Shown piece after piece: positions 5,101 to 49,799 of a stretch of DNA of 64,000 nucleotides. The notes under the pieces were generated by a model, which saw only the letters and a program-made list of their open reading frames with translations, ran no database searches and was not told where the DNA came from. The first letter of the stretch is position 1. The number at the start of each line of letters is the position of its first letter. This DNA comes from Candidatus Bathyarchaeota archaeon (lineage in GTDB: Archaea; Thermoproteota; Bathyarchaeia; Bathyarchaeales; Bathycorpusculaceae), in NCBI GenBank assembly GCA_963826715.1, contig CAWGYA010000008.1:672001-736000 (forward strand), written 5' to 3'. The translations under genes and the position numbers were made by a program.

Positions 5101-5534
5101 GCGAAGTAAACCCCCAGATAGCATGTTTGATCAGCGTTCTTTTTGATTTTGACTTGTGCTATGCCCTGGATTGGTGCGGCAGTTAAACCTTCAGTAAAGA
5201 TAGCCAATGCCGTGCGAATAGCCTGCTCGGCTAGCTTCTCTGGATCTTTCTCTTCTTCAGTTTGAGCAAATTTACCTTGAGCAATTTCCTGTGCTGCTTT
5301 AAAGGCGATCTCTTCACGTGGCAGCATCTTGCTTAATTCTCTGATGCTGACTGCGACGCCTTTGGGTCCAACTAATCCTTCTACCAAATCAGCAATGTCC
5401 TTTGCAATAATGCATTCAGTTTTAAGAGACGGATCTAAGCCATTAGATCTAGCGCTATCGCTGATTTCGTAGATTTGTTTCAACTGGTTGTTTAAGGTAT
5501 CAATGTAGTTTTGGTAACCCTTACTGATGCTCAA
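2112..5534 (-). CDS. polC: DNA polymerase D large subunit DP2
   Basis: YFAGPIRSAGGT, GGFRLRYGRSRNTG, RRDCDGDED catalytic motif and Zn-finger Cys clusters; 1140 aa with no obvious intein. Confidence 0.98.
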   Translation of the reverse strand: MSISKGYQNYIDTLNNQLKQIYEISDSARSNGLDPSLKTECIIAKDIADLVEGLVGPKGVAVSIRELSKMLPREEIAFKAAQEIAQGKFAQTEEEKDPEKLAEQAIRTALAIFTEGLTAAPIQGIAQVKIKKNADQTCYLGVYFAGPIRSAGGTDQALTLVVGDYVRRELGLDVYKPTEEEISRFVEELRLYERSVGRFQYHIPDVELRKALNLVPVECTGTESDPVEVSSYRNLERVETNRVRGGALRVINDGIVGRAQKVYVIIDKLGFSGWEWLKSFKKKSEKKSGGFMDDVIAGRPIFAFPSTRGGFRLRYGRSRNTGLSAVGIHPATMLVVENFLAAGTQMRLELPGKGGVTMPVDSIEKPVVLLKDGSVVRVSLENFSEVKGKIQKILFLGDILIDFGDFLYSNKALPPSGYVEEWWSKDLQNAVLAKFSGDTQKAAEACNLPYDKLEGFICDPFKNKPTTKEAAVLSQTLKIPLAPSSTFFWTGTPTFEDIECLQKWLGCCDVTLQEGYVSKIIGEANGEAVKVLRKIFVPHKIVEGKAVLVDPEATALAFTLGYGTTRFTQPMQVTSVLELLSVLSGVVIKDKAPTYIGGRMGRPEKAKHREMKPNVHVLFPVSLAGGSHRDLMEAVKKGPVFVEMVKRKCQECKTYTRKVLCEICGGPTFPEKVCPRCGRTLKDAYCGSCKSNAVLYQRQPVNFKELINNASISVGYSAPKMLRGVKGLTNLDKTPEMLEKGILRAKYGLSVYKDGTIRFDATNAPLTHITPAEIGVSIEKMHQMGYIADTHGLPLTDPNQVCELKIQDVVIPWTAGEYFLQIAAFIDDLLTRVYKQQPYYSFKKADDLVGHLIFGLAPHTCACILGRVVGYTDRNVIYAHPVWHSAKRRDCDGDEDAIMLGLDTLLNFSRVFLPAQIGGIMDAPILLIPVCNTKEVQRQAHDFDVSSSYPLEFFLKTWDKGEARPVSAFMDTISHRLGTEAQFEGFQYTTPCTNINLGNANSSYKEFKSMIDKLHMQLELGEKIDAVSAKSVALKVLNTHFMRDIAGNMRAFSTQGFRCKACNRKFRRLPLVGKCPSCSGKLSLTVYRGGIEKYLVAAQQLVDKYGLPKYYTQRMDLIKEELTLMFDNKKPKQSTLLDFK

Positions 5535-5657
5535 AGCGACCTTTCACAGCCATGATATTCGGTATAGGGTTATTTTGGTTTTCCTTAAATCAAATGAAAA
5601 TACTACGAGAACCCCAAGAACAGATGTTTTTAGACAATAAAATAGTAGCCTTTTTGC

Positions 5658-5921
5658 TTATTCGGGCTTGGTTACAGGTGTTCTTTTCTGGCTGCCATAA
5701 ACACTGTCAGTGAGCATGCAATAAACGTCCACTTCGCCCTGCGCAGATCGAATCGTGAATTCTTCTTTGAGCCCACAACTGCTGCATTGAGCAACGGAGC
5801 GTCCTCCTTCTTCACGGAATATTTCCACGCGCACAGTTTCTTTTCCGCATGTCGGGCAAGAGAAGAATTTAGGTAAACGCTTCTTTGGAATATGAACAAC
5901 TTTTTTCCTTCTTCGCCCCAT
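5658..5921 (-). CDS. elf1: Transcription elongation factor Elf1
   Basis: MGRRRKK...LPKFFSCPTCG...CSSCG...VDVYC zinc-ribbon pattern. Confidence 0.9.
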   Translation of the reverse strand: MGRRRKKVVHIPKKRLPKFFSCPTCGKETVRVEIFREEGGRSVAQCSSCGLKEEFTIRSAQGEVDVYCMLTDSVYGSQKRTPVTKPE

Positions 5922-6861: not shown

Positions 6862-7704
6862 GTGGACACCATGAAGGACAAAGTTAAGTTGGCACTTTGC
6901 CAAATTAGTAGCGACCGAGAAAACAAAGAAGCGAACCTCCAAAAAATTGAGGCTTTAACTCGACGCGCTGAGCAGGAGGGGGCGGAAATTGCGATTTTTC
7001 CAGAAATGTCGCTTACTGGCTATGTACTCCATGACCAAGTTTACGAGCTATCTGAACCCATCCCAGGACCATCCGTTCAGCGGATAGAGGAATTGGCGAA
7101 AGATACAAAGCTACATATTATTTTTGGCATGCCAGAGCTCTCCGAAAAAGCCCAAGCCACCATATTTAATACCGCAGTATTAGTGGGTCCTGAAGGTTTC
7201 ATCGGCAAATACCGCAAAATGTATCTACCAACCCACAGTGTCTTTGAGGAAAAACGCTACTTCCGACCCGGCTACAAACCTGCCGCGTTCCAAACCAAAT
7301 TAGGAAATATTGGTCTAACAATTTGTTATGATGTGTTCTTCCCTGAGGTATTTCGGCTGCCTCGACTGATGGGCGCCCAACTAATTGTCTGCATTTCTGC
7401 GTCGCCAGCGGTGCGACGAGCTTATTTTGAAATCCTCACAGCTGCCCGTGCTTTGGAGAATACGGCGTATTTGGCTTATGTGAACCTTGCTGGAGTGCAA
7501 GATGGTTTGCAGTTTTGGGGCGGAAGCCGCCTAATCAACGCAACAGGGGATGTTTTAGCTCGAGCAAAATATGATGAGGAAGATTTTGTGGTTTGCGAAG
7601 CGGATTTTTCGGATTTACGGGCTTCTGAAGCCTTTATTCCGACGCTGCGGGATTTGCGCCCTGAGCTTTATCGAAAGCTTAGAAAGCTTTCAGAGAAATT
7701 TTAG
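6862..7704 (+). CDS. Carbon-nitrogen hydrolase (nitrilase superfamily)
   Basis: Catalytic triad motifs FPEM, YRKMYL and ICYDVFFPE. Confidence 0.92.
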   Translation: MDTMKDKVKLALCQISSDRENKEANLQKIEALTRRAEQEGAEIAIFPEMSLTGYVLHDQVYELSEPIPGPSVQRIEELAKDTKLHIIFGMPELSEKAQATIFNTAVLVGPEGFIGKYRKMYLPTHSVFEEKRYFRPGYKPAAFQTKLGNIGLTICYDVFFPEVFRLPRLMGAQLIVCISASPAVRRAYFEILTAARALENTAYLAYVNLAGVQDGLQFWGGSRLINATGDVLARAKYDEEDFVVCEADFSDLRASEAFIPTLRDLRPELYRKLRKLSEKF

Positions 7705-7708
7705 AAGT

Positions 7709-7843
7709 ATCACATATAAACTTGGCTATTGGTGTTTGATGTCACAGGTGCATCACAAAGCTGTGATACTGATAGATTTATTGAAAATCACGGTGATTTG
7801 ACTGTGAGGAGTGACGTCACGGATCGTTTTTTTATGTCTCACA
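7709..7843. repeat. Cluster A of GTGAY/RTCAC motifs and palindromes (putative protein-binding array)
   Basis: ATCACA 7709, GTCACA 7741, ATCACA 7752, TGTGAT 7762, palindrome AAATCACGGTGATTT 7785-7799, palindrome GTGACGTCAC 7811-7820. Confidence 0.75.
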
Positions 7844-8189
7844 GATTTTTTTAAAAGTTTATGTTGCTTTGAAGCGGGTTTGCCGCTAAAAAAATGTGTT
7901 TTATTTACATAAGGTTGTAAAAAGTGCGCGTTTGCCTTTTTGACTGTTTTAAAAAAGAGCATTATTCGTGTAAAGTTAATAATATTACTCCTTTGATTAA
8001 TCGTAGAATTTAGCGTTTTTTGTGTTAATCGCATCTAATTTTTGTCTAAATAGTAAATTAACGATTTTTCAGGTTTATTTTTATTTTTAGAGGTTAGATA
8101 AGAGCTTTATTTGGTAAGCATATTAGCTTTTTGAGGTCTGTAAAGGTTAAAAAGCTGAGTTAGTATACAAAAGTGTATCCATTTAATCT

Positions 8190-8687
8190 ATGGGAGAAAG
8201 CATAAGTTTGAAGCTAAAAGACGGTGTAACAGCATGGTTAAACGGGGCATTAAACGACCCTATTGTCAAAATTCTGGCTAAAAACAGCCAATTAACAAAA
8301 ACGCAGCTTGAAACACTGCTTATTGATGTTTTGGCCGAAAATATATCGGGTAAACAGCTAAAGTACGATGATAAAGCCGCTTTAAGGTTAACAAGGGCTA
8401 AAATAAGTCGCGGTTCGTTTAATAGGACTTTAAAACAGTCCCGTGAAAACGTCATTAAGTCCATCTACACGGTGCTACTTTTGGGATATTTGGGAGTTTT
8501 TGAGACTACAACTCTTGACCCGTACCTCGAAATAGCAAATAAACTGCACGAGTATGTGGAAGCACACCAGGATCTGCCTAACAAGGAGGAGGAGCTAAAA
8601 GACCACCTAAAAGTTATAGAAATCATCCGAGAAGAGCTAGAAACGAGCCTAAAGCGACTTTCTAGTCCCTCAGAAAAGCTTTTGTGA
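8190..8687 (+). CDS. Hypothetical protein with a probable HTH DNA-binding motif
   Basis: QLTKTQLETLL...KAALR...ISRGSFNRTLKQSREN resembles a sigma-r4/Tfx-type HTH; helical C-terminus. Confidence 0.7.
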   Translation: MGESISLKLKDGVTAWLNGALNDPIVKILAKNSQLTKTQLETLLIDVLAENISGKQLKYDDKAALRLTRAKISRGSFNRTLKQSRENVIKSIYTVLLLGYLGVFETTTLDPYLEIANKLHEYVEAHQDLPNKEEELKDHLKVIEIIREELETSLKRLSSPSEKLL

Positions 8688-8974
8688 CGTCACAAGTCAC
8701 AGTTTTTGCCATCATTTTTTACCTATTTTATGATGTTAAAAGCGCTCCTATAAAGCCTACAATTATCAAATATTTCTACAAAATAAGCTCTAATTGACGT
8801 TATTTTCCTCTTGGACAGGCAAGCATTAATGGGTAAGCGTTAAGATTGTGATGTGTGATGTCATGTTTGGATGTGATAATATCACCGTAAACCTTAAAAA
8901 TCCATGGGAATTATTGTGATGTGTGATGTAACCTTTAAAATCACGGTTAAGTCACAACTGAATCACATGGTGAT
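8682..8974. repeat. Cluster B of GTGAY motifs: palindromes plus a 17-bp direct repeat
   Basis: TTGTGACGTCACAA palindrome 8682-8695; ATTGTGATGTGTGATGT at 8845-8861 and 8913-8929; GTGAT-AAT-ATCAC 8873-8885; GTCACA 8696 and 8951; AATCACATGGTGAT 8961-8974. Confidence 0.85.
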
Positions 8975-8980
8975 GAGATC

Positions 8981-9757
8981 ATGGCTGACCTTACATGGGT
9001 AATCTTGGGGGTTTTGGTGGCTGTAACAGCGGTAGCTGCCTACGAATACTACAGGCAAATCCGTATGGCCCACAAAGAATACAGCAAAGCTCGCGATTTT
9101 ATTCAAGATATAGTGCTAAGTTTCAACCGTGAACTCAAACGAGAATCTAACCGCTTTGAATCCATGGTCGCGAAAGTCGATGGAAGCTACGTGTCAGCAG
9201 AATCCAGCTACAGAAAAGTCGAAAGCTTGGAGAAAAAAGTTGAACCCCTACAAGAGCAACTTAGCGTCCTAACCCAATCCTATCAGTCCTTGTCACAGAA
9301 CAGCTCAGAAACCAGCCAAAATAGCACCACCATACTCTCTGGGATAGAGGGGCTTGAATCCAAGCTTAAAGACATCGAAGCTACCCAAGAAACGTTGAGG
9401 AACAGAATCACCGGTTTCGAGGAGCAAATACAGAAACTCTCCATGGCTCAGCCTTCTGTTAAGCAGGCCGAATTGGAAGTTGTGCTGCCACCTATTCCCA
9501 TTAAACGAGATAAAGCCCTAGCCGCACTTACTGAAACGGAGATTGTGGTTTTGGAGATGCTCGTAAAAGAAGGCGCTAAAACAGCCCCTGAAATTAAAGA
9601 GCGGGTTAAGCTTAGTAGGGAACATACTGCTCGTCTTATGAAAAAGCTCTATGAGGAGGGCTACTTGGAGCGGGAAATTGGTAAGATTCCGTTCCGATAT
9701 AGCCTTAAAAAGGAAATGGAGTCCCTGCTTCAGAAAATCGAACCCTCAGTCGCATAA
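8981..9757 (+). CDS. Membrane-anchored coiled-coil protein with a C-terminal winged-helix domain
   Basis: N-terminal TM (WVILGVLVAVTAVAAY), long heptad-rich region, then LTETEIVVLEML...TAPEIKERVKLSREHTARLMKKLYEEGYLER wHTH. Confidence 0.85.
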   Translation: MADLTWVILGVLVAVTAVAAYEYYRQIRMAHKEYSKARDFIQDIVLSFNRELKRESNRFESMVAKVDGSYVSAESSYRKVESLEKKVEPLQEQLSVLTQSYQSLSQNSSETSQNSTTILSGIEGLESKLKDIEATQETLRNRITGFEEQIQKLSMAQPSVKQAELEVVLPPIPIKRDKALAALTETEIVVLEMLVKEGAKTAPEIKERVKLSREHTARLMKKLYEEGYLEREIGKIPFRYSLKKEMESLLQKIEPSVA

Positions 9758-9796: not shown

Positions 9797-10228
9797 TTAC
9801 TTTATGCGTGACTTTATTGTTGCCGCTGGAATGTTAGACACTGTTTTGTATTTGAGGTTGTTTGATGTACCAGTGCGCATCAACAAGCCCTTTGTAGTCA
9901 TTCTTGAAAGGTACGTGGATATTGTACTTAGGCTAACGGGTTCTTTGAGTTCCTGTTCATAAATTGATTGAATATCTTTGGAGGAGAACCAGATTAGGGG
10001 AAAGTTTTTCTGGATAACTAATTGTACCTTTTCAAAACGAGAAAGATTCCGGTTGGATATTGTAGGGCTCGAAGAGACATTGGGACTTTCAGTCGGCGCG
10101 CTACCTAGCAATTCGACAAGATCCAGTAGGCGCAGAGCTTTATCGCGGGTAACTTGACCTTCAAAAGCAATAGTATAACGATTACCATCACTATCGAACA
10201 GCTCAACGCGCATTTTGCGAGCCGGCAT
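9797..10228 (-). CDS. Two-domain protein with a C-terminal winged helix
   Basis: Small N-terminal beta/alpha domain, Ser/Pro linker, then FSSKDIQSIYEQ...VSLSTISTYLSRMTTKGLLMR wHTH. Confidence 0.8.
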   Translation of the reverse strand: MPARKMRVELFDSDGNRYTIAFEGQVTRDKALRLLDLVELLGSAPTESPNVSSSPTISNRNLSRFEKVQLVIQKNFPLIWFSSKDIQSIYEQELKEPVSLSTISTYLSRMTTKGLLMRTGTSNNLKYKTVSNIPAATIKSRIK

Positions 10229-10247
10229 CTAATTTACACCTAGGTTG

Positions 10248-10547
10248 TTCACAAAATCTACACTTCACGGCATATAACTGTGATGGTGAACAAAGAGAAA
10301 TAGACGGGGTTATTTTAGGCTTTGAATTTATTTTTATCCATATTTTAGACTTTTTACAGGATAACAAGCTTCACATGTTAACAGAACTACAAAATGATTT
10401 CAGTTCAAGCTTAGTTCGCTTTTTCCAGTAGAAGCAGAGGGGTGGCTGCTTCACAGTAAAGAGACAGAATTAGAGTAAATTAACAAAAAACAAGTCTTTT
10501 AAAGCAACAGTTTTTTGGTATTTAATATGGATTCACAAATCTGTGAA
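10248..10547. repeat. Cluster C of TTCACA/TGTGAA motifs
   Basis: TTCACA 10248, 10370 and 10450; TTCACG 10264; GGTGAAC 10285; inverted pair TTCACA-AATC-TGTGAA 10532-10547. Confidence 0.65.
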
Positions 10548-11011
10548 CGGTAAAGATGAAAAAAATCAACTAAAAAATATTTTTAGCAGCCAGGATCAGG
10601 TGATTAGTATGTCATGACTAATTTACTACCTGTTATTGTGTTTTTAGCTATTTTTTATTGGTTTTTGAAGCTAAACGCACACCCCTATGTTTCCGCTCGA
10701 AGTTTTACGGGTAAAAAAGAAGTTTGGCAAGGCTGAAAAAAAATTCGCATAAGTTTTGTTTAGGATTTTAGACAGATATCATTAATATATAAAAATCCTA
10801 TTAGAACTTAGAGTATAGTTCTATATATATATATAATAATAATAATAATATGAATTTTAAAATAACTCACTGATTTTTTCCAATAGAAACATTGGGGTGT
10901 GTGTTCTTCCCTTTTTGTTTAATTGTTATAGCCTTTAACCATCCTTTTGTAGGAATATGTTGTGCCAAAACCAGTTTTTTGTACTGATTCATTTATCTGT
11001 TCCACTCGAAG
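10423..11011. other. Replication origin (oriC) with ORB elements and an AT-rich unwinding region
   Basis: ORB-like boxes: TTCCAGTAGAAGCAGAGGGG 10423 (+), 10674-10702 (-; TTCGAGCGGAAACATAGGGGTGTG), TTCCAATAGAAACATTGGGGTGTG 10878 (+), mini-ORB GTTCCACTCGAAG 10999. (TA)n/(TAA)n tract at 10822-10851. Directly upstream of cdc6. Confidence 0.88.
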
Positions 11012-11048
11012 TAACGGTTCTACCTGTGTAACAGATAGCGTGGACAAC

Positions 11049-12284
11049 ATGGGAAATTCAAGCATATTAGATGACGTATTTGATAATTTCGTTAACGGGA
11101 CAAAACTTTTCAAAGATCGAGAAGTTCTACGTCATGACTACTTACCTGATAAACTACCCCATAGAGAAGATCAAATTCGCCTTTTAGGTGCTACTGTGGC
11201 TCCCGTGCTAAAAAATGCTCGATGCTCAAACATCTTCATTTATGGTAAAACTGGGACCGGGAAAACTGCCGTTGCAAAATATGTTCTCAGTCATTTAGAG
11301 TCAAAAGCTAAAGAATACGGTGCACAAATCAAATTTTGTTATATTAATTGCCGCATGACAGGTTCAGAATATCGTGTTTTTGCTAATCTTAGCCAAAGCT
11401 TAGGCTTAACAATTCCATTTACTGGGCTCTCTGTTGGAGAAGTTTTTGACAGATTTCGCTCAGGTCTTGATCAATCCAGAATAATATTCATTATTGTTCT
11501 CGATGAGGTGGATGCCCTAATTAAGGATCGTGGCGACGCCTTCATGTACGAACTTACTCGAATAAATGAAACACTGAGTAAAAGTAAGGTTTCTATAATC
11601 GGCATATCAAATGATTTACGCCTTAAAGAATTTCTTGATCCAAGAGTATTCAGTTCGCTTAGTGAAGAAGAATTAGTTTTTCGACCTTATGATGCAGCGG
11701 AACTTCGTAACATATTACTTGAACGTTCAAAGTTAGCTTTCCAAGATAACGTTTTATCAGATTCTGCTCTGAGTATTTCATCTGCTTTAGCTGCAGCGGA
11801 ACATGGTGATGCACGACGTGCTCTGGATTTGCTGCGTGTAGCAGGTGAAGTAGCGGAGCGCGAGAATGCAAAATCTGTTACTGAGGAGCATGTTCGGCAA
11901 GCCGAAAAGCACATTGAGCATAATCGGGTTGTTGAAGCCCTCAACAATCTTACCCTTCATTCCAAATTGGTGCTACTCAGTGTCTATCACTTAAACAAGT
12001 CAAATTCAACCACAGGTGAAATCTATGATGTTTATAATGAACTCTGTTGTGAGATGGGTTCGGGACTGCTAACTCAGCGACGCTTGGGCACATTGGTGAA
12101 TGAGCTTGATTCAATGGGACTTGTCAACGCCAAAGTGGTAAGTATGGGTAGATACGGCAGAACTAAAAAAATCCGTCTTGAAATCTCCAGAGGCTTAATC
12201 CGTGATGTTTTTGGTGGTGATGCCCGTTTCAGTCAAATCATTAGCTATAAGACTAAGGGTATGCATAAACCCATTGATAGCTAA
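11049..12284 (+). CDS. cdc6: Orc1/Cdc6 replication initiator
   Basis: LRHDYLPDKLPHRE, Walker A GKTGTGKT, Walker B VLDEVD, GDARRALDLLR and C-terminal wHTH with GRYGRTK. The ORF is open from 10962, but that extension overlaps an ORB. Confidence 0.97.
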   Translation: MGNSSILDDVFDNFVNGTKLFKDREVLRHDYLPDKLPHREDQIRLLGATVAPVLKNARCSNIFIYGKTGTGKTAVAKYVLSHLESKAKEYGAQIKFCYINCRMTGSEYRVFANLSQSLGLTIPFTGLSVGEVFDRFRSGLDQSRIIFIIVLDEVDALIKDRGDAFMYELTRINETLSKSKVSIIGISNDLRLKEFLDPRVFSSLSEEELVFRPYDAAELRNILLERSKLAFQDNVLSDSALSISSALAAAEHGDARRALDLLRVAGEVAERENAKSVTEEHVRQAEKHIEHNRVVEALNNLTLHSKLVLLSVYHLNKSNSTTGEIYDVYNELCCEMGSGLLTQRRLGTLVNELDSMGLVNAKVVSMGRYGRTKKIRLEISRGLIRDVFGGDARFSQIISYKTKGMHKPIDS

Positions 12285-12285
12285 T

Positions 12286-13866
12286 TTAAAGAAAAGAAAG
12301 CACAGTTGTCTCCAATGTTTGAAGATTCACCACCGGCACCTTGCCTGGTGTTGGGACTAGCCCTAGCTTTTCCATATAGTCAGTTTGTTCTTGCCACCCA
12401 CCTGAATTAACAACTAACACTCCTCGGTAATTACAAAAGCCTAAAACGTGGATGTGCCCTGCGTGGAAGATGTCCGGAACTTTGTCGACAACTAGGAAAT
12501 CTCGATTTTCTGGTGAAAGCATTGTTTTTCCACCATAGACAGGAGCAAGGTGCCGACCTTGCAAAAGCAGTTTCATTGATTTTTCAGGGTGGTCATTATC
12601 CATTCCCGGAACAACTCCGATTATATCATTTAGGCTTACGCCATGAAACATCAAAACCTCAACTCCATGTATACTGAGGTAGCATGGACTGCCGACAGAA
12701 TGAATGTTATTTTTCCCTTTAATTCCATTTAGATAGCCCTCAGGAATAGCGGGTTGAGGCTGGGATTTACGTGCGGCATCATGATTGCCTGGAGAAATTA
12801 CAATTTCAATATAGTCAGGAATTTTACTAAGGTATTTTGCGGCAAAATTATACTGTTTGTGGATATTGCGGATGGTTAGCTCTTTCTGTTGATCAGGATA
12901 GATACCGATACCATCCACGATGTCCCCTGCAACTAATACGTATTTTACTCTACCAGCGATTTCCTGCATGGACGGTGAGCCGTATTTCCCTCGAAGCCAT
13001 TGTATAAAGTTTTTAAAAGCCTTTTTGTTAAATTTAGTGCTTCCCACATGAATGTCTGATGTTAAAACTGCGTAAATGGGCTCATTTGCTCGATTTGGTG
13101 GTTTTCTGCCTACTTCTGGAAGAATTATATCCTCTGCCATTAATAGGTCGGAGCGAGTTTTAATAACGGCTGCACAGAAAATCGTGTCGGGCAAAATCAT
13201 AAGTGCCTTCTTCTTTACTTCTTCTGGTGCCTTCTGCGGAACCATAATAGTTGCATTTCCTTGAAGATCCTCTACAGAGAGAATAATATTGTTTTTTGCA
13301 TCACGCTTCTCAGTTAGCATGCAGATGATTTTGAGCTTGGTTTTGGGCTGAGATTTTAGTGCTTCCGCAATAGGTGTGGCGGCTCTAACATCCATTCTTT
13401 GGCGAAGCACTCTTTCTATGCGTTTAAAACGGTCTTGGAAGTAGCTGCTATATTCGTTGAGGGTCCCGTTGGAGGTCAATTCTCCCGTATGGTCTTGGAG
13501 GATGACTAGTTCTGAGGGAATGTATTTGGCGTAAGGATAAAACTCGTTTGCATCTTCGCCTTGTATTGTTATTGCAGGCTTGGGGGCCCTTGGTGTTTCC
13601 GTTGTGGGGTAGCTTACTTGAGGAAGTTCAACTATAACTTCAGGGATTGTCGTTGTCTGCTGCATAATCGCTTCCAAAAAGCTACGTTCGATAAACATGG
13701 GTTTTTCCTGCAGTGCCTCTAATCTCTGCAAAGCCATGTTCATTATCAAGGCGGGGTCGTGTTGTGAGTTTTGGATGAGAAACTCGAAAGCTTCACTATT
13801 CAACTGATAACCTGCAGCAATAGTAGCCTCGATTGCATTTTGGAGTTTCTCTTCTACACTTATCAC
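12286..13866 (-). CDS. polB: DNA polymerase D small subunit DP1 (proofreading exonuclease)
   Basis: OB fold plus calcineurin-like motifs SDIHVGS, AGDIVDG, PGNHD, HG and AGHIH. Confidence 0.97.
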   Translation of the reverse strand: MISVEEKLQNAIEATIAAGYQLNSEAFEFLIQNSQHDPALIMNMALQRLEALQEKPMFIERSFLEAIMQQTTTIPEVIVELPQVSYPTTETPRAPKPAITIQGEDANEFYPYAKYIPSELVILQDHTGELTSNGTLNEYSSYFQDRFKRIERVLRQRMDVRAATPIAEALKSQPKTKLKIICMLTEKRDAKNNIILSVEDLQGNATIMVPQKAPEEVKKKALMILPDTIFCAAVIKTRSDLLMAEDIILPEVGRKPPNRANEPIYAVLTSDIHVGSTKFNKKAFKNFIQWLRGKYGSPSMQEIAGRVKYVLVAGDIVDGIGIYPDQQKELTIRNIHKQYNFAAKYLSKIPDYIEIVISPGNHDAARKSQPQPAIPEGYLNGIKGKNNIHSVGSPCYLSIHGVEVLMFHGVSLNDIIGVVPGMDNDHPEKSMKLLLQGRHLAPVYGGKTMLSPENRDFLVVDKVPDIFHAGHIHVLGFCNYRGVLVVNSGGWQEQTDYMEKLGLVPTPGKVPVVNLQTLETTVLSFL

Positions 13867-14088
13867 TTTTTAGACCTTTATTCCCTTTTTTTATACCGTG
13901 TATTTGTTAGGCTCTATGGCTTTTGGGTTATTTACTGTTTTTTGTTTTTATAGTTCCCCCTGATTAAAACTCTTTTTCAAACTTTTAACCCATAGCTTGA
14001 AAAATAGTTCTTTGATTGATAATGACGGGGTTTAAGCAATTTATATAAGCTGTGTAATGTTTAGATTTGTTATATCTTGGTGTGCTTT

Positions 14089-15060
14089 ATGGGTGATTTG
14101 CGTAAAATTCAACAGACGCCAACCGGAACCTTCTTTGTTTGTTTACCTCGCGAATGGGCGAGAGAGAATGGTCTGCAGAAGGGAATCTTGGTTGATCTAG
14201 ATGTAACTGCTGACGGCAAACTTTTGGTTGACTCCAAATACGATGTTGAACAGCTGCCCAAAGTGGCATCGCTTAAGGTTGGACCATTTTTGAACCGCGA
14301 AATTGTTGGACGGTATCTATTAGGATATGATGTTATTCGTGTTGAAGCCAAGGATCGTATTGACTCAAGCGTGCGAACCTTGATTAAATCAACGGCTAAC
14401 TCTTTGGCGGGCTTGATGATTGTTGAGGAAACAACCTCTATGATGTCGCTTCAGTGTCTTATGCAGCAACCTTTCACGTCACCCGAGAAGATTTTGCAGC
14501 GCAATAATGCAAGCGCAGCGAGGATGATTCGTGATGCAGCAAACTCATTTGTTAACTTAGACATGGATCTTGCTAAAAATGTGATTGAGCGGGATGTTGA
14601 GAACAACAAGTTTTATTTTTTACTTGTCAGAATTTTGAGAACCATTATCCAAAATCCTCGGCTAAGCGAAAAACTTGCCATATCTCCCATTGAATGTCTT
14701 GATTATCGTTTAGCTTCAAGCCTTATTGAAGGCATAGGAGATGCATGTGTGCAGATGGCATCGACTACCTTGGCACTCAACGGAACCAAACTTTCGGAGG
14801 ACCTACGCAAACTGTTGCTGGATTTGCAGTTAACCTGTTGCGAAGCAAATGAGCAAGCCTTCAAAGCATTCCTTGGTAAAGACATTTCACTAGCTGAAAA
14901 TGTTCGAAGCTTGAAAGCTAAAATCGAGGTTAACTCGTCTAAAATCGAATCTGTAGCAAAGGACTCCTCGGTGGATTTAATGCCGCAGATTCTTTCAGCA
15001 GTGTCCTTTTTACGGCAGATTTACGAACGCAGCGTTGATATGGCAGATTTAGTTGTTTAG
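14089..15060 (+). CDS. PhoU-family phosphate uptake regulator with N-terminal AbrB domain
   Basis: RKIQQTPTGTFFVCLPREWA AbrB motif, YLLGYDVIRV and two PhoU helical repeats. Confidence 0.88.
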   Translation: MGDLRKIQQTPTGTFFVCLPREWARENGLQKGILVDLDVTADGKLLVDSKYDVEQLPKVASLKVGPFLNREIVGRYLLGYDVIRVEAKDRIDSSVRTLIKSTANSLAGLMIVEETTSMMSLQCLMQQPFTSPEKILQRNNASAARMIRDAANSFVNLDMDLAKNVIERDVENNKFYFLLVRILRTIIQNPRLSEKLAISPIECLDYRLASSLIEGIGDACVQMASTTLALNGTKLSEDLRKLLLDLQLTCCEANEQAFKAFLGKDISLAENVRSLKAKIEVNSSKIESVAKDSSVDLMPQILSAVSFLRQIYERSVDMADLVV

Positions 15061-15175
15061 GTTTCTTAAATAATCGTATTGATGTGTTGGCTCAGAAATT
15101 TAAAGTGCAGTAGTATGTTGGTTCACTATTGCTAAAGGGTTAAATCTACAGGTCACTATTCACAATGAGATATCT

Positions 15176-15799
15176 ATGTCCTCAGTTACTGATAAAATCG
15201 CTAATGCTCTCTTTATCTCTGAGTGCCTGCGGTTTGACAGCTTCAAAATCAAGTCAGGAGCGACCAGCCCCTACTACATCGATTTAGCGCGTGTTCTTTC
15301 GGCACCAATGCAGATGGATGCTATAGCAGAGTCTGCGGCAGAGAAAATACGGCAAATCCAAGAAGGAGAATGCATAAACAAGTTAGCGTCAATCGAGCTT
15401 AAAGGCGCTTTAATTGTCCCCAGCATAGCTCTGAAGCTCAACATGCCTTGCATAATTGTTCGAAAAGAAGCGAAAGCGTATGGTATTACGGGTCGAATTG
15501 CTGGCGCTGATGTTAACAAAGGTGATAACATTCTTTTTTTTGACGATGTTATCAGCGAAGGCTTATCAAAGGTCGAAGGAATTAAAACACTTTTGGATTT
15601 AGGGGCAAACGTGAAGCATATTTTAGTTGTAGTTAATCGCGAACACGGTGGCAAAGAGCATCTAGAAAAACTCGGCTACCGTGTTCATGCTTTAGCTAAA
15701 ATCTCCGACGTAGTTACGTCGCTATCCGACAGAGGTTATATTTCAAAGGAGCAGGCTGCTAGAGTCTTAGATTATATCGTACAGTTCAAACTCGAATAA
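15176..15799 (+). CDS. pyrE: Orotate phosphoribosyltransferase
   Basis: KSGATSPYYIDL, IVRKEAKAYG and PRPP-binding FFDDVISEG. Confidence 0.88.
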   Translation: MSSVTDKIANALFISECLRFDSFKIKSGATSPYYIDLARVLSAPMQMDAIAESAAEKIRQIQEGECINKLASIELKGALIVPSIALKLNMPCIIVRKEAKAYGITGRIAGADVNKGDNILFFDDVISEGLSKVEGIKTLLDLGANVKHILVVVNREHGGKEHLEKLGYRVHALAKISDVVTSLSDRGYISKEQAARVLDYIVQFKLE

Positions 15800-15977
15800 T
15801 GTATACTTCTATTGATCAATGGTGTGTTACCTTGTGGGTATTTAGCTTTCCTAAAAGGGGCCTTATCAAGATACGTAATTAGGCAATTCATTGACTAACC
15901 TATAACCTATCTACAAAAGCAATCCATATTCTTTATTGCTTACTCGCCCCAAGAATAGCTGCAAGGAAGTTACAAAA

Positions 15978-16982
15978 ATGCCCAGCGAAATCGTTCAAGC
16001 ACTTCTTAACCCAGAAACTTACCCCGAAGAATCAGGCGAAATTCAACTTATACAAACCCATATCTCGTTTGTTTTTGTAACCAAAAATTACGTCTACAAA
16101 GTCAAAAAGTCAGTAAACTTTGGTTTTCTAGATTTCTCCACACTCGAAAAAAGGCATGTCTTCTGCGATAAAGAACTCCAACTAAACAGGCGGCTTTGTC
16201 CAGAAATCTACTTATCCGTAGTTCCCATAAACAAAGTTGACGCTATCATAAAGATAGATGGTGTGGGCGAAACAATCGAGTACGCAGTTAAAATGAAGAG
16301 ACTGCCCCAAGAATGCATAATGACCACCCTTCTGCAAGAGAGCAAAGTGGGTAAGAAAACCATAGATGAAATCGCATCTATAGTCGCCAAATTCCACGAA
16401 AAGGCTCAAACCAACAAAACCATTAGCAACTTTGGCTCCCTTGACATTGTGAAAGCCAATTGGAATGAAAACTTTTCTCAGACCCAAAAATACATAGGAC
16501 AAACCATAACCAAAGCCCACTTTGAATTCATCAAGAATAAAATAGATCACTTCATAACTCAAAACAAACCTCTTTTTGAAGAGCGCATCACTCACGGATG
16601 CATCCGTGACTGCCATGGTGACTTACACTCGGGGAACATTTTTGTAACAGACAAAATATGCATTTTTGATGCCATCGAATTCAATGATCGCTTCCGATAC
16701 AGCGACGTAGCCGCAGATGTAGCGTTTTTAGCTATGGATCTCGACTACCAAAACCAAAGGGACTTGGCCAACTACTTCATTTCGCAATACCTTGCTTACT
16801 CCAAGGATACTAAACTAAAACGGGTTTTATCCTTCTATAAGTGCTATCGTGCTTATGTGCGGGGAAAAGTGGTTAGTTTCCGACTTGACGATTCAAACAT
16901 AAAAGCGGAGGAAAAATCTGTCGCAACTAAGGAAGCCTCAGCATATCTACAGCTATCCTTTGAGTACGCTGTAACTCTTTGA
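15978..16982 (+). CDS. Aminoglycoside-phosphotransferase-like kinase (COG2187-type domain)
   Basis: QTHISFVF, YKVKK, ELQLNRRL, DCHGDLHSGNI, FDAIEFNDRFRYSDVAADVAFLAMDL, YRAYVRGKV. Confidence 0.88.
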   Translation: MPSEIVQALLNPETYPEESGEIQLIQTHISFVFVTKNYVYKVKKSVNFGFLDFSTLEKRHVFCDKELQLNRRLCPEIYLSVVPINKVDAIIKIDGVGETIEYAVKMKRLPQECIMTTLLQESKVGKKTIDEIASIVAKFHEKAQTNKTISNFGSLDIVKANWNENFSQTQKYIGQTITKAHFEFIKNKIDHFITQNKPLFEERITHGCIRDCHGDLHSGNIFVTDKICIFDAIEFNDRFRYSDVAADVAFLAMDLDYQNQRDLANYFISQYLAYSKDTKLKRVLSFYKCYRAYVRGKVVSFRLDDSNIKAEEKSVATKEASAYLQLSFEYAVTL

Positions 16983-16986
16983 TCTC

Positions 16987-17856
16987 TCATTTTTTGAATT
17001 GGTCTGCTACCCAAACAGGCACTGCAACTGTGCCCATTATGATGGGTTTCTGGTGGCAGTCGCTCCCCCCAGTCAAAATCAAACCTTGTTCTTTGGCGAA
17101 CGTGCTATATTGGTTGGTGGTTTCTGCAGTGAGGCGACTATGCCAGCATTCTAATCCATCAATATAGGGTAATATGCAATTTTGGATTATCTCCGTTTGC
17201 TCGGTTATATTTTTAGTTAGGGCAACAAGGGATGTGCCGTGAGGATCATTGCCATGTGCAAATACCAGTAAACCGCCTGCGTTTCTGATAAGTTTTGAGG
17301 CTTCCTTGAGATAGAGTGGGTATTTGGGTACGTCACATTTTACAAGATATTTGTCAAAAGCTTCTTGTCGGCTAGTCACGATTTTCTTCTTGATAAGGTA
17401 GTCCGCGATGTGTGGTCTACCCAAAGTACCCTCAATAGATTCCTCGATTTGCCGAAAATCATTATTAGTTAGGGGTGGAATGTTTTCTTTTTGGAATTCC
17501 TTGTTGAGATTCCCCAGGATTTTTGCTGCCCGTTCCTGTCGGTAATTCGCGATAGTTGATAGCTTTTTTTGAAGCCCCTCGTTATCTTGATTATATTGGT
17601 ATCCTAGAAAATCTAGCGAAACGGCTTTGCCCTCTCGATATTTGGGATGAGTGAAAGTGACGTTTAATTCCACGCCTGTGATGTATCGGATGCCAGTTGC
17701 CTTTGCCTGTTCGATAGCTGTAGATTGGCAGTTAATATTGTCATGGTCGGTTATTGCTAAAAAGTTGATGTTTCGGGTCTTGGCTTCTAACATGATTTCT
17801 TTGACGGTGAATTTTCCGTCGGAGGCTGAGGAATGGATATGCAAGTCAATAGTCAT
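16987..17856 (-). CDS. PHP-domain phosphoesterase (TrpH/YciV-like)
   Basis: DLHIHSSASDG, AITDHD, GVEL, GRPHIA and TGGSDCH. Confidence 0.92.
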   Translation of the reverse strand: MTIDLHIHSSASDGKFTVKEIMLEAKTRNINFLAITDHDNINCQSTAIEQAKATGIRYITGVELNVTFTHPKYREGKAVSLDFLGYQYNQDNEGLQKKLSTIANYRQERAAKILGNLNKEFQKENIPPLTNNDFRQIEESIEGTLGRPHIADYLIKKKIVTSRQEAFDKYLVKCDVPKYPLYLKEASKLIRNAGGLLVFAHGNDPHGTSLVALTKNITEQTEIIQNCILPYIDGLECWHSRLTAETTNQYSTFAKEQGLILTGGSDCHQKPIIMGTVAVPVWVADQFKK

Positions 17857-41570: not shown

Positions 41571-42626
41571 GTGTTCGGAGTGGAAAATAACTCTGCCCGA
41601 CTCCAATTATCGCTGCAGAAGGATTTTCTTATTAAACTTCTGCCCATGTTTGCGTTCATTGCGCCTTTGTTGTTGTTGTACTTGTTTAATCCACCCGATT
41701 CATTTCTACACGTTTCAGCGCGGCAGTCCTTTGAGCTTATGTGGAAAGGTAGAACTTTCCAAGTATTCTTCATTTGGCTTATCGCTTTAGAGTTTATTTT
41801 TAGCTGGGAAACAATCAAAAATAAAATTAGCCATCAAAATAGAGGGACCTCAGTAGCTTACGCGTCGGTTCTACTGCTTCCAACAGTTTATGTGTTATTA
41901 GAATATTACTTGGGTTTGAACGAAATCATTGCAGCTTGGTCTCAACAAAGTGGTGTTGTCTTCGCTTATTCGATGCCGCTTTCCATTGAGTACCTTGTCT
42001 TCTCAGCGCTTTTTTTCTCGATAATGTTTGGGACCTACGGTAAAAAGGGGCTTTCAAGATTCGCCCTGCCCGGGCTCTTTGTGGCTTTGGTCGGTGTTCT
42101 CTATACTATCGACAACTTTTTTCCTTATAGCAAGTTCACTCCTTTTCAGTTGTTGGTTCCCACAACCGCCGCTCTAGCCGAAGGGGTGTTTGGCTTGATG
42201 GGATTCATAGTTGTTCCTGGTATTGAGTTAAGTAGCGGGATGCCCACTTTATCGGTTTCAGGTTCAACTGGGTCGGCTTTATTTGCGATTGCTTGGCCCT
42301 GTGCAGGGATAGAAATCCTATTAATATTTACCGCAGTGACTCTGCTGTTCCTCAAACGAATAAACATAAGCAGTAAAGCCAAAGTGGTCTTCTTTGCCGC
42401 GGGTGTCACAATAACCTACCTAATTAATGTGCTGAGAATCGTTAACATATTCATTTTGGGTATGCAATATGGGGTAAGCTCTCATGAGGTTGACATGTTC
42501 CACTTCTTCTATGGCCCCCTTTATGCTATGGCATGGATAGTTACATACCCATTAATCGTCTTATTTTCTACTGTTGCATGGCAGAGAATTAGGAGACCTC
42601 AACCAAAACTGCTAGCCCCTGCTTAA
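41571..42626 (+). CDS. Archaeosortase/exosortase-family membrane protease (thaumarchaeosortase-like)
   Basis: Multi-TM protein with WKGR, catalytic WPCAG, NVLRI and a downstream His. Confidence 0.82.
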   Translation: MFGVENNSARLQLSLQKDFLIKLLPMFAFIAPLLLLYLFNPPDSFLHVSARQSFELMWKGRTFQVFFIWLIALEFIFSWETIKNKISHQNRGTSVAYASVLLLPTVYVLLEYYLGLNEIIAAWSQQSGVVFAYSMPLSIEYLVFSALFFSIMFGTYGKKGLSRFALPGLFVALVGVLYTIDNFFPYSKFTPFQLLVPTTAALAEGVFGLMGFIVVPGIELSSGMPTLSVSGSTGSALFAIAWPCAGIEILLIFTAVTLLFLKRINISSKAKVVFFAAGVTITYLINVLRIVNIFILGMQYGVSSHEVDMFHFFYGPLYAMAWIVTYPLIVLFSTVAWQRIRRPQPKLLAPA

Positions 42627-43206
42627 CTAGAATTTGAGCGTTCAGTGATGGTAACGATGCTACATCTTCCATGTGGAAGGGCCCGTAAGATTTCATGTCG
42701 GCACCCATTATAGCGGGGATATTTTTGGTGAATCGTAAGGTTAGCCTTTTATGGGTGACGTGGGTTTCGGGTTTCACGATAACTTTGATTGTTGGAATTT
42801 GGTCCTGCTGAATATGCTGTTTTATTTCAGGGGGTAATTGTCTCGGTTCTCCTTGTTTCAGATTTCTGGAAAAACAGCGATAGGCTTCTGAGAAACCAAC
42901 GAAAGCCTCGCACATTTTAGCTTCTTCAGCTGTCATTAACTCCACTGGTGCCTTATGCAGTTTGGTTATAGTTTTGAGAATTTTTCTGTAACGTAAATCC
43001 AGCAGGTCCCCGAGCATTCGCTCAACATTTTTTGTTTCATGATCAAGAAGGTTGGTTTTCACAGTTTTCTTTTCGACGGGTTTGTTCTGGTCTGCTTTTA
43101 TCTGCTCAAGGTACTCTGAGATTTTGACGTAAAAATCAGGCGTTAAACCTCCAAGTGTGGAGTCGTCAATTTCCCTTCGCCAAGCAGCATACAACTGATC
43201 ATACAT
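42589..43206 (-). CDS. GINS subunit Gins15 (Gins51)
   Basis: Helical A domain (DFY...LRYRKI...EE) and B domain IPAIMGADMKSYGPF; downstream of priS. Confidence 0.88.
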   Translation of the reverse strand: MYDQLYAAWRREIDDSTLGGLTPDFYVKISEYLEQIKADQNKPVEKKTVKTNLLDHETKNVERMLGDLLDLRYRKILKTITKLHKAPVELMTAEEAKMCEAFVGFSEAYRCFSRNLKQGEPRQLPPEIKQHIQQDQIPTIKVIVKPETHVTHKRLTLRFTKNIPAIMGADMKSYGPFHMEDVASLPSLNAQILVKQGLAVLVEVS

Positions 43207-43210
43207 CAGA

Positions 43211-44452
43211 TTATATAACCTCCGCTCGTTTTTTGCAGATAAGCATAACAGCCGCTGCAGTCGGCAACTCTATTTTCTGGTTTCTGTAAGGCCCCAACGT
43301 TTGTCCCCCTAACTTAAACTCTGGCGATTCCGACACCAACACTTGCACTTTGCCCTTTTTAAAAGCTACCGCTCCTACAAACGGATCAAAATACATTAAG
43401 TCTTTTGTTGGAAACTCGACTTTTTTTAGCCCGGTTTTGCAATGTAGGGTGCCGTTCATGCGGATCAACCGATGGATGTCGGTGGTGACGACGGTATCGA
43501 TTTTAGCAGTTTTTTCAACCTTAACGTAATTAGCGAGTCTCATCCATGTCCCGTCACTGATTCCCATAACACCGTCCCAATAACCGTCATCTAGACAGCG
43601 CTCTATCAGAGTATCCTTCTTTTCTCTAAGTAATTCCATTTTCCTTGGATCAAAGCCTATTTCTAATAAGTCTTCTGCGCTGGCGTTTGAGAGGAACTCT
43701 TTGATGCCCAATTTCAAACGTCGGTTCCAGCCGAAATCATGCAAAGCAAATCTCTTAGATTCGTTGGGCTTACCATATTTGCCTCTTTCCTTCTTAACTT
43801 TCTTTTCCAGAACAGCCACTCCCAACCCCGTCACGTAATCAACAATTTCCTTGCGCGCCATAGCATCTAAGCCTCGCACTATTTCGCTTTCTATATGCAC
43901 GTGGTATCCGCGATGCCCGGAAAAAAACACTCGGATCTCGTTCTCTGAGAACCCAAAATCATTCTCCAACATGTCTATGAGTTTGGCGGTTTCGTCCCGG
44001 GAGGATTGAATGCAGAATTCGCAAGGCCAGGTTCTGGTTTCGAATTTAGTACCCTCGCAGTTGGGGCAGACTTCGGGGGTGATACCTCTACCGCTAAAGT
44101 TGCATTTGACGCACCGGAATTTATCGTGGATTTTGTCGCATTTAGTGGGGATGTGGTCTGCGTCTATGTCAAAGACTATATCGGAACCAATCCAACCCTT
44201 TTTATCCATGTCATAGTCGGGGTTTTGGTAGTAGGCGCAACTATGATAGACGTCTGATGGCACTATATCAGCGAGGACAGCCCGTAAATTCTTAATGTTG
44301 TTAAATCTGCGATGCCGGATCATGAAGCGTTCTTTGAACATTAGGTAACCAAATTCTCGCTGTTCAGTAAACGGAGGTGAAGGAACAGCGTTTACAGGAT
44401 CTCTGTAAAACTCGCTGAACCTCTGAAAAACGAATTCTCTGGAAGCCTCCAT
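43211..44452 (-). CDS. priS: DNA primase small (catalytic) subunit
   Basis: QREFGY, VFDIDAD, FSGHRGYHVH and IDTVVTTDIHRLIR. Confidence 0.96.
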   Translation of the reverse strand: MEASREFVFQRFSEFYRDPVNAVPSPPFTEQREFGYLMFKERFMIRHRRFNNIKNLRAVLADIVPSDVYHSCAYYQNPDYDMDKKGWIGSDIVFDIDADHIPTKCDKIHDKFRCVKCNFSGRGITPEVCPNCEGTKFETRTWPCEFCIQSSRDETAKLIDMLENDFGFSENEIRVFFSGHRGYHVHIESEIVRGLDAMARKEIVDYVTGLGVAVLEKKVKKERGKYGKPNESKRFALHDFGWNRRLKLGIKEFLSNASAEDLLEIGFDPRKMELLREKKDTLIERCLDDGYWDGVMGISDGTWMRLANYVKVEKTAKIDTVVTTDIHRLIRMNGTLHCKTGLKKVEFPTKDLMYFDPFVGAVAFKKGKVQVLVSESPEFKLGGQTLGPYRNQKIELPTAAAVMLICKKRAEVI

Positions 44453-44530
44453 ATCTCCCTACCCAACTACTTTAGTAAATACTTGGGTTTCGTACATTTA
44501 ACTATTAACACCAAAAAGCGAACCTTCCAG

Positions 44531-46321: not shown

Positions 46322-46401
46322 GCTTCAACCTGCCTGTTCTTTATTTTCTCTAAATATCTTTTAGCTGTATTTGATACTGATTAAAAACTATAATACATGT
46401 C

Positions 46402-47145
46402 TTATGAACGCCAAACCGCCTTTATTGTGTAAGAGAGGAAACTTTCAATTTCCGTCCAGGTCAGTTTGGATTTGCCCCGTTTTCGATTCACAAACAACAC
46501 AGGGGTCTCCCTAACAGTAAATTTTTTCTGCGATGCCTGCCGCACTGTTTCAATCTGGATTTCGTAGGTATGACTATGTAGGTCTCCGATGACTTCTTTA
46601 ATGAACGAAGTGGAGTAGCAGCGGAACCCACTTGTGCAGTCCTGTAGCTTTAAACCCAGCGAGGCGCGGGCTAAAGTATTAGCGGTTTTGCTAATGATTT
46701 TTCGCGACAATGGCCAACCTACGATTTGGCCGCCTTTGCTGTATCTGCTGCCGATTACCATAGCGCATTCGCATTCCTGCATTATGCTTAGTAACTTCGG
46801 TAAATCTTGGGGGTCATGGGAGTAATCGGCGTCCATCGTGAACACGTATTTAGGCGGTTGCTTATAAGAAAGAAAAATTTTGAAACCATCGGTTATGGCG
46901 GTGCCCAACCCCTTCTTTTTGGGTCTGCTGTAGAGCGTCACGTTAGTGTATTTGGTTTGTTTTTCTCTAATGATGTCAGCTGTTCCGTCAGGGCTTGAAT
47001 CGTCAATGACTAGAATCGATGCATCCAAGTTTAGGTGCTCTATATCCTCGATTAATCTAGCTATGTTGTCCGCTTCTCTATATGTTGGTAGAATCACGCC
47101 GATTTTGGAGTTACCGGGAGCGGCTCCAATTAATTCAAAGCCCAT
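46402..47145 (-). CDS. Polyprenol-phosphate mannose synthase (GT2, Dpm1-like)
   Basis: ILPTYREADNI, IDDSSPDGT, MDADYSHDP, GSRY and DCTSGFR. Confidence 0.92.
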   Translation of the reverse strand: MGFELIGAAPGNSKIGVILPTYREADNIARLIEDIEHLNLDASILVIDDSSPDGTADIIREKQTKYTNVTLYSRPKKKGLGTAITDGFKIFLSYKQPPKYVFTMDADYSHDPQDLPKLLSIMQECECAMVIGSRYSKGGQIVGWPLSRKIISKTANTLARASLGLKLQDCTSGFRCYSTSFIKEVIGDLHSHTYEIQIETVRQASQKKFTVRETPVLFVNRKRGKSKLTWTEIESFLSYTIKAVWRS

Positions 47146-47193
47146 AAATTATTCAACTTATAGCAGTAAATGTGAATTAATAAACCTAAAGGG

Positions 47194-48225: not shown

Positions 48226-48237
48226 TTGGCGTCAGCA

Positions 48238-48993: not shown

Positions 48994-49503
48994 GAATTTC
49001 TAACCTCTTTTCCTCGCCTAATGCTTACAGTACAGGATTATATTAGCTTATCATAACGCTCTTTATTTATAAATTTAGCCTGGCAAAAAGCTGAAAGCCT
49101 TGTTTGTAAGCTTCAACCCAGGTTTCATTTTTTATTTGTGGAATCGTGGTTGCCGCAACGCGCGGTAGCCAAGGTCGCTAATCTTTCTATCTTTTCTAAT
49201 CAATCAAAACCCTTAGGCGGGACCTTTATGCCAAATCTTTTTCGTTGCTGATTTAGATCTTGGTGGCGTAGTGGACCGAGTTTCCATTGCAGAATTTTAT
49301 TACCTTTCCATAGTGAATATTTGGAAGTATTGTTTTGCTAACTACCGCTTTTATTATTATAGGACTTCCGGTTTTAAGATGTAAATAACGGGGGCCTTTC
49401 TAATATTTAAGTAACGTTTAGCTCCAACACTTTTTTTGGCTATAAAAGTGAAAAAGTATAAGAACATGTGTGTTCCCTTATTGGGAAGCTGGTAGTGAAG
49501 AAC

Positions 49504-49779: not shown

Positions 49780-49799
49780 AATTAATGGAGAAGAATAAA

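Follow-up and report, generated by a model that had tools for sequence, protein, structure and literature searches.

Proteins that combine a DNA-binding domain with a coiled coil link the chromosome to the membrane or the cell pole in Streptococcus pneumoniae (RocS, PMC11500499) and Bacillus subtilis (RacA, whose heads dock flexibly and coat a centromere, PMC4914108). In Staphylococcus aureus, a single polypeptide, RicO, unites a sequence-specific head with a coiled coil and a membrane anchor, and its ricS sites lie near the origin, for which an origin-membrane tether has been proposed (bioRxiv 10.64898/2026.03.06.710092). Centromere-like sites beside the gene of their binder are described for SegAB, HpaAB and AspA-ParB-ParA (PMC12139799, PMC13722703, PMC5120986). 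Here we analyze 64 kb of DNA from a Candidatus Bathyarchaeota archaeon (contig CAWGYA010000008.1, positions 672,001 to 736,000; hereafter the window), in which two dense arrays of the half-site GTGAY flank a small gene, gene A, close to a predicted replication origin. The arrays are a strongly conserved regulatory or partition element at a predicted Bathyarchaeia origin, and the protein of the next gene, gene B, is their specific candidate binder. With a probability of about 45%, we read them as a centromere-like array through which the gene B protein tethers the origin region to the membrane and also represses its own gene.

At the level of sequence prediction, gene B resembles the bacterial tethers in having a head, a coiled coil and an anchor in one chain, together with a conserved site cluster near the origin. 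The order of the parts differs: RicO has an N-terminal head and a C-terminal amphipathic helix, whereas B begins with a membrane-spanning helix and ends with the head. RocS also uses an amphipathic helix and RacA depends on the partner DivIVA and a GC-rich site, and both have the reverse domain order to B. The nine ricS sites are spread over ~700 kb, compared with ~20 half-sites in 1.3 kb here. RicO has been tested in vivo, whereas the role of B is predicted from its sequence. None of the RicO, RocS and RacA families is among the 25 best Pfam or NCBIfam matches listed for B, no direct pairwise comparison having been made, and we reject membership in any of them for this anchor-first, head-last protein.

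The arrays also recall Omega/parS of plasmid pSM19035, where 7-bp ATCACA-like units in direct and inverted orientation act as operator and centromere. That system is plasmid-borne and uses a ribbon-helix-helix binder with ParA, whereas no ribbon-helix-helix protein of that kind is present at this locus. SegB is a ribbon-helix-helix protein, too. As with SegAB, HpaAB and AspA-ParB-ParA, the sites studied here lie beside the gene of their candidate binder, and in AspA a winged helix extends from a palindrome. However, all three systems use a ParA ATPase, which was found neither in the window nor in 80 related loci, and we do not count the locus among these ParA-based systems; HpaB is a ribbon-helix-helix protein, and no membrane anchor is described for the three in the available parts of the reports. 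Finally, UBP with its ucm sites is an accessory sequence-specific binder at origins with origin recognition boxes (ORBs) in Sulfolobus, but ucm lies within the unwinding region and UBP has >300 genome sites, while the GTGAY arrays are outside the origin core (PMC12141716).

Two compact GTGAY arrays flank gene A

The features that define the arrays are as follows.

7709-7820: left array, eight GTGAY half-sites in mixed orientation, directly 3' of the nitrilase stop codon (7704)
7850-8140: A+T-rich spacer with 24-27% GC in 7900-8099, without GTGAY, with short semi-conserved blocks near 7965 and 8017
8190-8687, plus strand: gene A (A165), all-helical protein without named family, with a Tfx/sigma-region-4-like helix-turn-helix (HTH; helix S-R-G-x-F-N-R) and a C-terminal helical hairpin
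8683-8701: element R1, the palindrome TGTGACGTCACA with a tandem half-site 7 bp further, across the gene A stop codon
8847-8967: right array, tandem TGTGATG pairs at 8847 and 8915 around the probable B recognition element (BRE) and TATA box of gene B (~8884-8900)
8981-9757, plus strand: gene B (B258), predicted N-terminal membrane helix (residues 6-21), coiled coil of ~135 residues and C-terminal winged helix; start codon ATG in the window

GTGAY occurs eight times at 7700-7850 and 13 times at 8680-8980, while dinucleotide-shuffled sequence gave means of 1.29 and 1.49 and none of the 2000 shuffles reached either count. An earlier account made from the letters alone (the sequence-only reading) had proposed such a comparison with a composition background, and the enrichment it expected is found at both arrays. 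All seven stretches that it quoted are where it placed them. A matrix built from orthologs only yielded 10 and 8 matches per 300 bp at the arrays and ≤3 elsewhere in the window, and from 8683 on TGTGA is the third most clustered of the 5- and 6-mers in the window, behind two A/T runs. Between the arrays (~830 bp) there are no GTGAY sites, neither in 7850-8189 nor in 8190-8680, so the sites form two compact clusters and not a continuous tract. Since this interval lacks sites, a sequence-guided cooperative spreading over 1.2 kb, as the sequence-only reading had suggested, is not supported.

The palindrome shared by the arrays, GTGACGTCAC, has just two copies in the 64 kb, at 7811 and 8684, the second crossing the gene A stop codon as previously noted. 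At its end (7803-7820), the left array has TGTGA-n3-GTGACGTCAC, which repeats the element at 8683 in inverted orientation. The 17-bp direct repeat reported within the right array is exact at 8845 and 8913, and the array tails off into the gene B leader with half-sites at 8941, 8952 and 8963 in 11-bp steps. Two inverted sites reported there are present but hold up only in part: in the one at 8961-8974 the palindrome begins only at 8962, and the GTGAT half falls where orthologs have a G-rich ribosome-binding site, the motif not being conserved; the one at 8873-8885 is conserved only in its right half (TCAC, 8882). Neighboring half-sites stand 6 bp apart when head to head and 7 bp or 10-11 bp apart in tandem, distances that would suit side-by-side binding. 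The BRE/TATA of gene B is probable from its position and conservation. Under the left array no promoter was recognizable, and the left spacer (7850-8140) holds no conserved open reading frame; a sigma-70 promoter scan was disregarded because the host is archaeal. Two semi-conserved spacer blocks were also observed: TTT..TGTWAA (window 7960-8030), in one or two copies in 44/79 loci and often 54 bp apart, and AAAATAAGC (window 8780-8790), whose pattern occurs in 54/80 loci.

The arrays are conserved while the flanking spacer diverges

All ortholog counts refer to the 80 closest of 543 GTDB loci carrying a gene A relative (83-94% protein identity), whose median coding-DNA identity to the window is 72%. 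The left array is found in 79/79 scorable loci with 6-15 sites (mean 8.9), corresponding to 44.6 GTGAY/kb over the first 200 bp past the nitrilase stop codon. The right array, likewise in 79/79, has 9-16 sites and 38 GTGAY/kb past gene A, compared with 0.9-3.3/kb in the neighboring genes of 79 loci. Motif columns are conserved at 0.85-0.89 and other spacer columns at 0.53-0.60; for the left array the values are 0.89 and 0.53. The conservation in related genomes by which the sequence-only reading wished to be judged is thus seen in the 80 closest loci, where both arrays are kept and the flanking spacer diverges.

Individual elements are conserved as well. The R1 pattern GTGAYRTCAC-nnn-TCAC stands at the end of gene A in 80/80 loci; it overlaps the stop codon in 69 and lies 5-9 nt downstream of an earlier stop codon in the other 11. 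As it persists where the stop codon moves, R1 is conserved in its own right. The terminal palindrome of the left array occurs in 74/79 loci, and in 45 of them an additional half-site upstream completes the inverted copy of R1. The tandem pairs of the right array are 67-71 bp apart in 79/79 loci, around a conserved CCTTAA-type block that we read as the probable gene B TATA box. The left array-end element and R1 are 848-940 bp apart across loci, and DNA looping between the arrays is plausible. Raw inter-array distances peak near 854, 864, 875 and 885 as if helically phased, a pattern that does not hold once the tree is taken into account. Overall, the earlier claim that these sites exceed a simple operator is borne out: each cluster is present in 79/79 loci, the spacings fit side-by-side binding and the left cluster has no recognizable promoter.

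Gene B encodes the probable binder of the arrays

The gene B protein probably binds the GTGAY arrays. Its C-terminal winged helix scores above the Pfam cut-offs for MarR and TrmB, and its recognition helix S212-R213-E214-x3-R218 is invariant in 77/77 aligned orthologs and in 120/120 listed database homologs. R213, E214 and R218 align onto R180, E181 and R185 of E. coli CRP, gap-free through the HTH, and in CRP these residues read G2 and G4, the two G:C pairs of TGTGA (PMC11253593, PMC2677863). The B locus hence has in common with CRP/FNR proteins both an R-E-x-x-x-R motif that opens the recognition helix and the TGTGA half-site (also PMC12531629). R-E-x-x-x-R has a background rate of 0.00026 per residue in the long frames of the window. 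In the spacer 5' of gene B, TGTGA ranks 2nd of 509 five-mers, behind the overlapping GTGAT.

In 74/75 anchored sequences (anchoring failed for four loci), the EYY motif is preceded by a hydrophobic segment that begins only a few residues into the protein and is followed by basic residues. This location near the N-terminus and the basic residues that follow predict a membrane anchor with the remainder of the protein inside the cell, lacking an outer sensor domain. Residues 25-160 show a hydrophobic period of 3.5 residues, and the coiled segment is 132-189 residues long across orthologs. Complex prediction for two copies of B (score 0.10, mark 0.42) weighs neither way. No relatives of gene B were found in plasmids.

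Most orthologs appear to start gene B on an unusual codon. At the position of the window ATG (8981), 64 of the 75 scored orthologs have ACG, 10 have ATG, GTG or TTG and one has GCG; 3/78 loci were unscored, and although the script chose among five codons, the DNA alignment gives the same column. In 48/64 of the ACG orthologs, neither the in-frame sequence upstream nor the six codons that follow contain a standard start. In 70/76 sequences the start codon comes after a purine-rich ribosome-site pattern. These sequences suggest that translation initiates at ACG in most orthologs. The usual start context, ATC-ACG, is a copy of the array motif, and ACG may be retained because an array site overlaps it. 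Our literature search found no papers on ACG starts in archaea. Gene callers will mis-place a conserved ACG start, and database homologs with the same head span 157-339 residues.

In ten loci, including deep branches, a HerA-type ATPase gene (Pfam DUF87) and a gene for a 339-aa partner without Pfam match, which we take by eye to be NurA-like, lie between B and C (L015, L038, L048, L068 at 11475-14010 on the minus strand, L069, L071, L073, L075, L077 and L078); the pair is absent from the window. One Bathycorpusculum locus (L039, 11845-12711, minus strand) has an insertion between B and C that encodes 288 aa, probably a secreted or membrane protein, with no Pfam match.

A predicted origin and a third site class lie beyond gene C

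Downstream of gene B, the following features were identified.

9797-10228, minus strand: gene C (C143), small beta-beta-alpha N-terminal domain and a winged helix (Fur/BlaI-like fold)
10247-10547: third array of the variant GTGAA/TTCAC, on the gene C promoter and on both sides of ORB1, with TTCACA-N4-TGTGAA at 10532-10547
10422-10898: predicted replication origin (oriC) directly 5' of cdc6, with ORB1 at 10422-10443 (plus), ORB2 at 10680-10700 (minus) and ORB3 at 10877-10898 (plus)
10962-12284, plus strand: orc1/cdc6 initiator (TIGR02928, 422 bits), with a conserved ATG at 11049

Two ORB-like boxes are inverted around an A+T-rich stretch, a layout also described for Sulfolobus oriC1 (PMC12141716). 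Counted by eye, boxes are 19/22 and 18/22 identical to the ORB in Table 2 of PMC4153887, and ORB1, ORB2 and ORB3 are kept in 69, 73 and 70 of 75 loci. An A+T-rich unwinding region has 20% GC at 10800-10899. With boxes around such a stretch and orc1/cdc6 adjacent, the predicted oriC is of the ORB/Cdc6 type. As the spacer between gene C and cdc6 shows this archaeal layout, the GTGAY arrays lie 1.5-2.7 kb from the predicted oriC and cdc6. A highly conserved block 5' of cdc6 (window 10978-11018), consisting of a T-run, TTTATCTG and an ORB-like half, probably serves as cdc6 promoter and includes an autoregulatory box.

Within its first 400 bp, the spacer at the origin contains on average 8.9 GTGAA (minimum 7) versus 0.7 GTGAY in 75 loci, while the GTGAA mean in the two GTGAY arrays is 0.3-0.5. 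TCACA-N4-TGTGA is present in the third array in 72/75 loci. These GTGAA sites are candidate sites of an origin regulator, with the gene C protein as candidate binder; a Foldseek search with gene C gave no match at E≤0.001.

The order of genes is DP2, elf1 (minus), NAD synthase, nitrilase, left array, A, right array, B, C (minus), a 730-bp spacer, cdc6 and DP1. The nitrilase gene is 5' of gene A in the same orientation in 79/79 scorable loci, gene B follows gene A in 78/78, and gene C is followed by cdc6 in 75/76. Homologs and related loci assign the window to Bathyarchaeia, and a three-gene tree places it beside loci titled Ca. Bathycorpusculum. The sequence-only reading had left out the predicted oriC 1.5 kb away, the membrane-anchored winged-helix protein B as likely binder, and two further site classes.

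Gene A carries its own promoter element

Gene A is preceded by a further conserved element.

8147-8178, plus strand: probable gene A TATA box (8147-8153) and nearly invariant pseudo-palindrome ATACA-N4-YGTAT (8165-8178), columns 90-99% conserved

Its position between TATA box and start codon makes ATACA-N4-YGTAT a candidate operator of gene A. The conserved start codon is probably TTG 8208, giving 159 aa, since this codon is TTG or ATG in 78/81 sequences. The structure model is all-helical (predicted local distance difference test score of 86), and residues 32-94 match the Tfx-family regulator EnfR (8HNO) with Z 5.9 and a root-mean-square deviation of 1.4 over 52 residues. The Atlas lead for a Tfx-type HTH stands at 0.79. 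Based on the modest EnfR match, calling the bracketed gene an HTH gene, as in the earlier account, is fair but weak: Pfam and NCBIfam gave no HTH match, and no Pfam support for a Tfx-type HTH was found in 102 members. Foldseek had no match at E≤0.001, the profile found no solved relative below E 0.2, and the wide fold search was dominated by generic helical hairpins. Gene A has ~3000 database relatives but belongs to no family, and no relatives were found in phages. Its helix reads R-G-x-x-x-R without a glutamate, which could fit the TGTAT-type site of gene A itself. For proteins A and C, the probable targets are the site classes on their own promoters, ATACA-N4-YGTAT and GTGAA, respectively. 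With three site classes, one on the promoter of each of the DNA-binding genes A, B and C, the GTGAY class belongs to the promoter of B.

An origin-membrane tether weighed against other explanations

We propose that each winged-helix head of B reads a TGTGAY half-site through its CRP-like R-E-x-x-x-R helix. A flexible proline-rich linker would join the heads to the coiled coil, allowing them to load at 6, 7 or 10-11 bp and in either orientation. The ~20 sites in two clusters could thereby collect many anchored B molecules, which would probably bridge the clusters around gene A and hold the origin region at the membrane. After initiation, by analogy, each daughter origin would have its own membrane patch and be carried apart or kept in place, and binding of B to its own promoter, leader and start codon would cap the level of B. 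If B is indeed the binder, a tether role is somewhat favored. The tether is preferred because the left array has no recognizable promoter yet is equally conserved, because there is no further cluster in the 64 kb, and because B combines a long rod with a bare anchor; RicO, RocS and RacA, moreover, act in segregation with the same three parts.

Several observations weigh against this reading. Autorepression alone accounts for the right array, and the sites are confined to 1.3 kb, as against ~700 kb for ricS. The deviant Walker A pattern of ParA has no match in six frames of the window and the 80 loci. In the tree-aware helical-phasing test, 13/28 length changes (≥4 bp) were in phase, about as expected by chance. 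The HerA-type pair (2.6-2.7 kb) separates the arrays from the origin in the ten loci that carry it. Regarding recognition, BLASTP gave no alignment of gene B with CRP, the HTH_Crp_2 score of B is 16.8 bits with a cut-off of 27, and TGTGA-N6-TCACA, the CRP spacing, has no match in the window. As B has a MarR/TrmB-type winged helix and gave no BLASTP alignment with CRP, the CRP reading code may not transfer to it. Unlike CRP/FNR proteins, B also lacks a nucleotide-binding domain and has a membrane anchor; with a membrane helix and coiled coil as its N-terminal part and HTH_Crp_2 below cut-off, it was rejected as a member of that family. The evidence covers 64 kb of this genome and the 80 closest of 543 loci.

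A purely transcriptional circuit, in which B binds the right array as its own operator and the left as an auxiliary one, the loop encloses and controls gene A, and the anchor serves signal control by sequestration or proteolytic release, is unlikely in our estimate. It is nevertheless the main rival, and a strong one, because the right array, whose sites bracket the probable TATA box, leader and start codon of B, is fully explained by it and the inverted copies of one 17-bp element enclose exactly the transcription unit of gene A; the promoters of A and C having their own sites also fits. A repressor, however, would not need a coiled rod of 132-189 residues or ~20 sites for just one or two promoters, B has no predicted outer sensor domain, and the absence of another cluster from 64 kb holding many replication genes and the oriC linkage in 75/76 loci likewise speak against it. 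The model implied by the sequence-only reading, with dimers of the gene A protein on the abutted palindrome extending along half-sites, appears improbable. The arrays do flank gene A symmetrically, its fold is HTH-like, and 107/150 distant homologs scanned have [RK]-G-x-x-x-R. The C-termini of distant homologs also show a weak excess that would fit a site over the stop codon (last residue L, M or V in 37/111 versus 21% background), although the R1 trace in them is weak, 11 observed versus 6.4 expected for one pattern. In protein A, however, the glutamate with which CRP specifies the second G is missing, the gene A promoter has a different palindrome and no GTGAY site, and the GTGAY sites sit on the promoter of B.

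Replication control, either by arrays that titrate or handcuff an origin regulator at firing or by an iteron-type second origin with the A+T-rich 7850-8140 and a winged-helix initiator, is quite improbable as well. The arrays adjoin oriC, repeats edge the A+T-rich stretch, GTGAA sites directly flank ORB1, and Sulfolobales have both non-Cdc6 initiators (WhiP) and accessory origin binders (UBP). But 7850-8140 contains no ORB, a complete ORB origin with cdc6 is 2 kb away, the class at the origin proper is GTGAA and not GTGAY, and the mixed orientation of sites is unlike iterons. It is very unlikely, and largely refuted, that the sites are not protein operators but form RNA hairpins or a terminator, or serve recombination that inverts a cassette containing gene A. 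While in this genome R1 can form a 7-bp hairpin (z -2.1) with a T run behind it, such a run follows R1 in only 23/80 loci, the loop that would result is invariant, z for the array folds is -0.06 to -1.8, Rfam gave no match at E≤1 and the centers of the two palindromes do not co-vary; a structured RNA or intrinsic terminator was rejected, as the sequence itself is conserved instead of pairing and a U-tract. The two 17-bp elements are indeed inverted repeats, but gene A, the enclosed segment, has a single orientation relative to the nitrilase gene in 79/79 loci, and the invertible cassette was rejected.

Further observations at the locus

A replication-gene cluster (GINS51, primase small and large subunits, PCNA, MCM, GINS23, RFC) at window 42589-59045 is <50 kb from the origin and has no GTGAY cluster. 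Between DP2 and elf1, 72/77 scored sequences have a PcrB-family (GGGP synthase-like) gene that is absent from the window (5534-5658) and from four tree neighbors (L023, L039, L043 and L053). At L016 (~11590-17350), the block that spans gene C to phoU and includes oriC and cdc6 has the opposite orientation and is bordered by two copies of an unrelated ~60-bp repeat; this may be real or an assembly effect and has no link to the arrays.

Implications for origin handling in Bathyarchaeia

No account of this locus was found in the literature searched, subscription papers and supplements being outside the search, and chromosome segregation in archaea beyond Sulfolobales and haloarchaea is an open question (PMC13722703, PMC11381335). 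The locus supplies a named site, a named candidate binder, three residues and a 79-residue domain in archaea of sediments and guts that are largely uncultured. Tentatively, Bathyarchaeia may have a hitherto undescribed module of three genes and three DNA codes that handles the origin, in which B would form a ParA-free tether that segregates the chromosome, a second winged helix bound around an ORB would couple it to initiation and the ACG start would limit the dose. Even under the rival transcriptional reading, there would be candidate sites next to oriC for three unannotated conserved DNA-binding proteins. If the tether reading is true, the origin of a TACK-group archaeon would be attached directly to the membrane, and this ParA-free tether would have converged on that of bacterial RicO and RocS with a reversed architecture.

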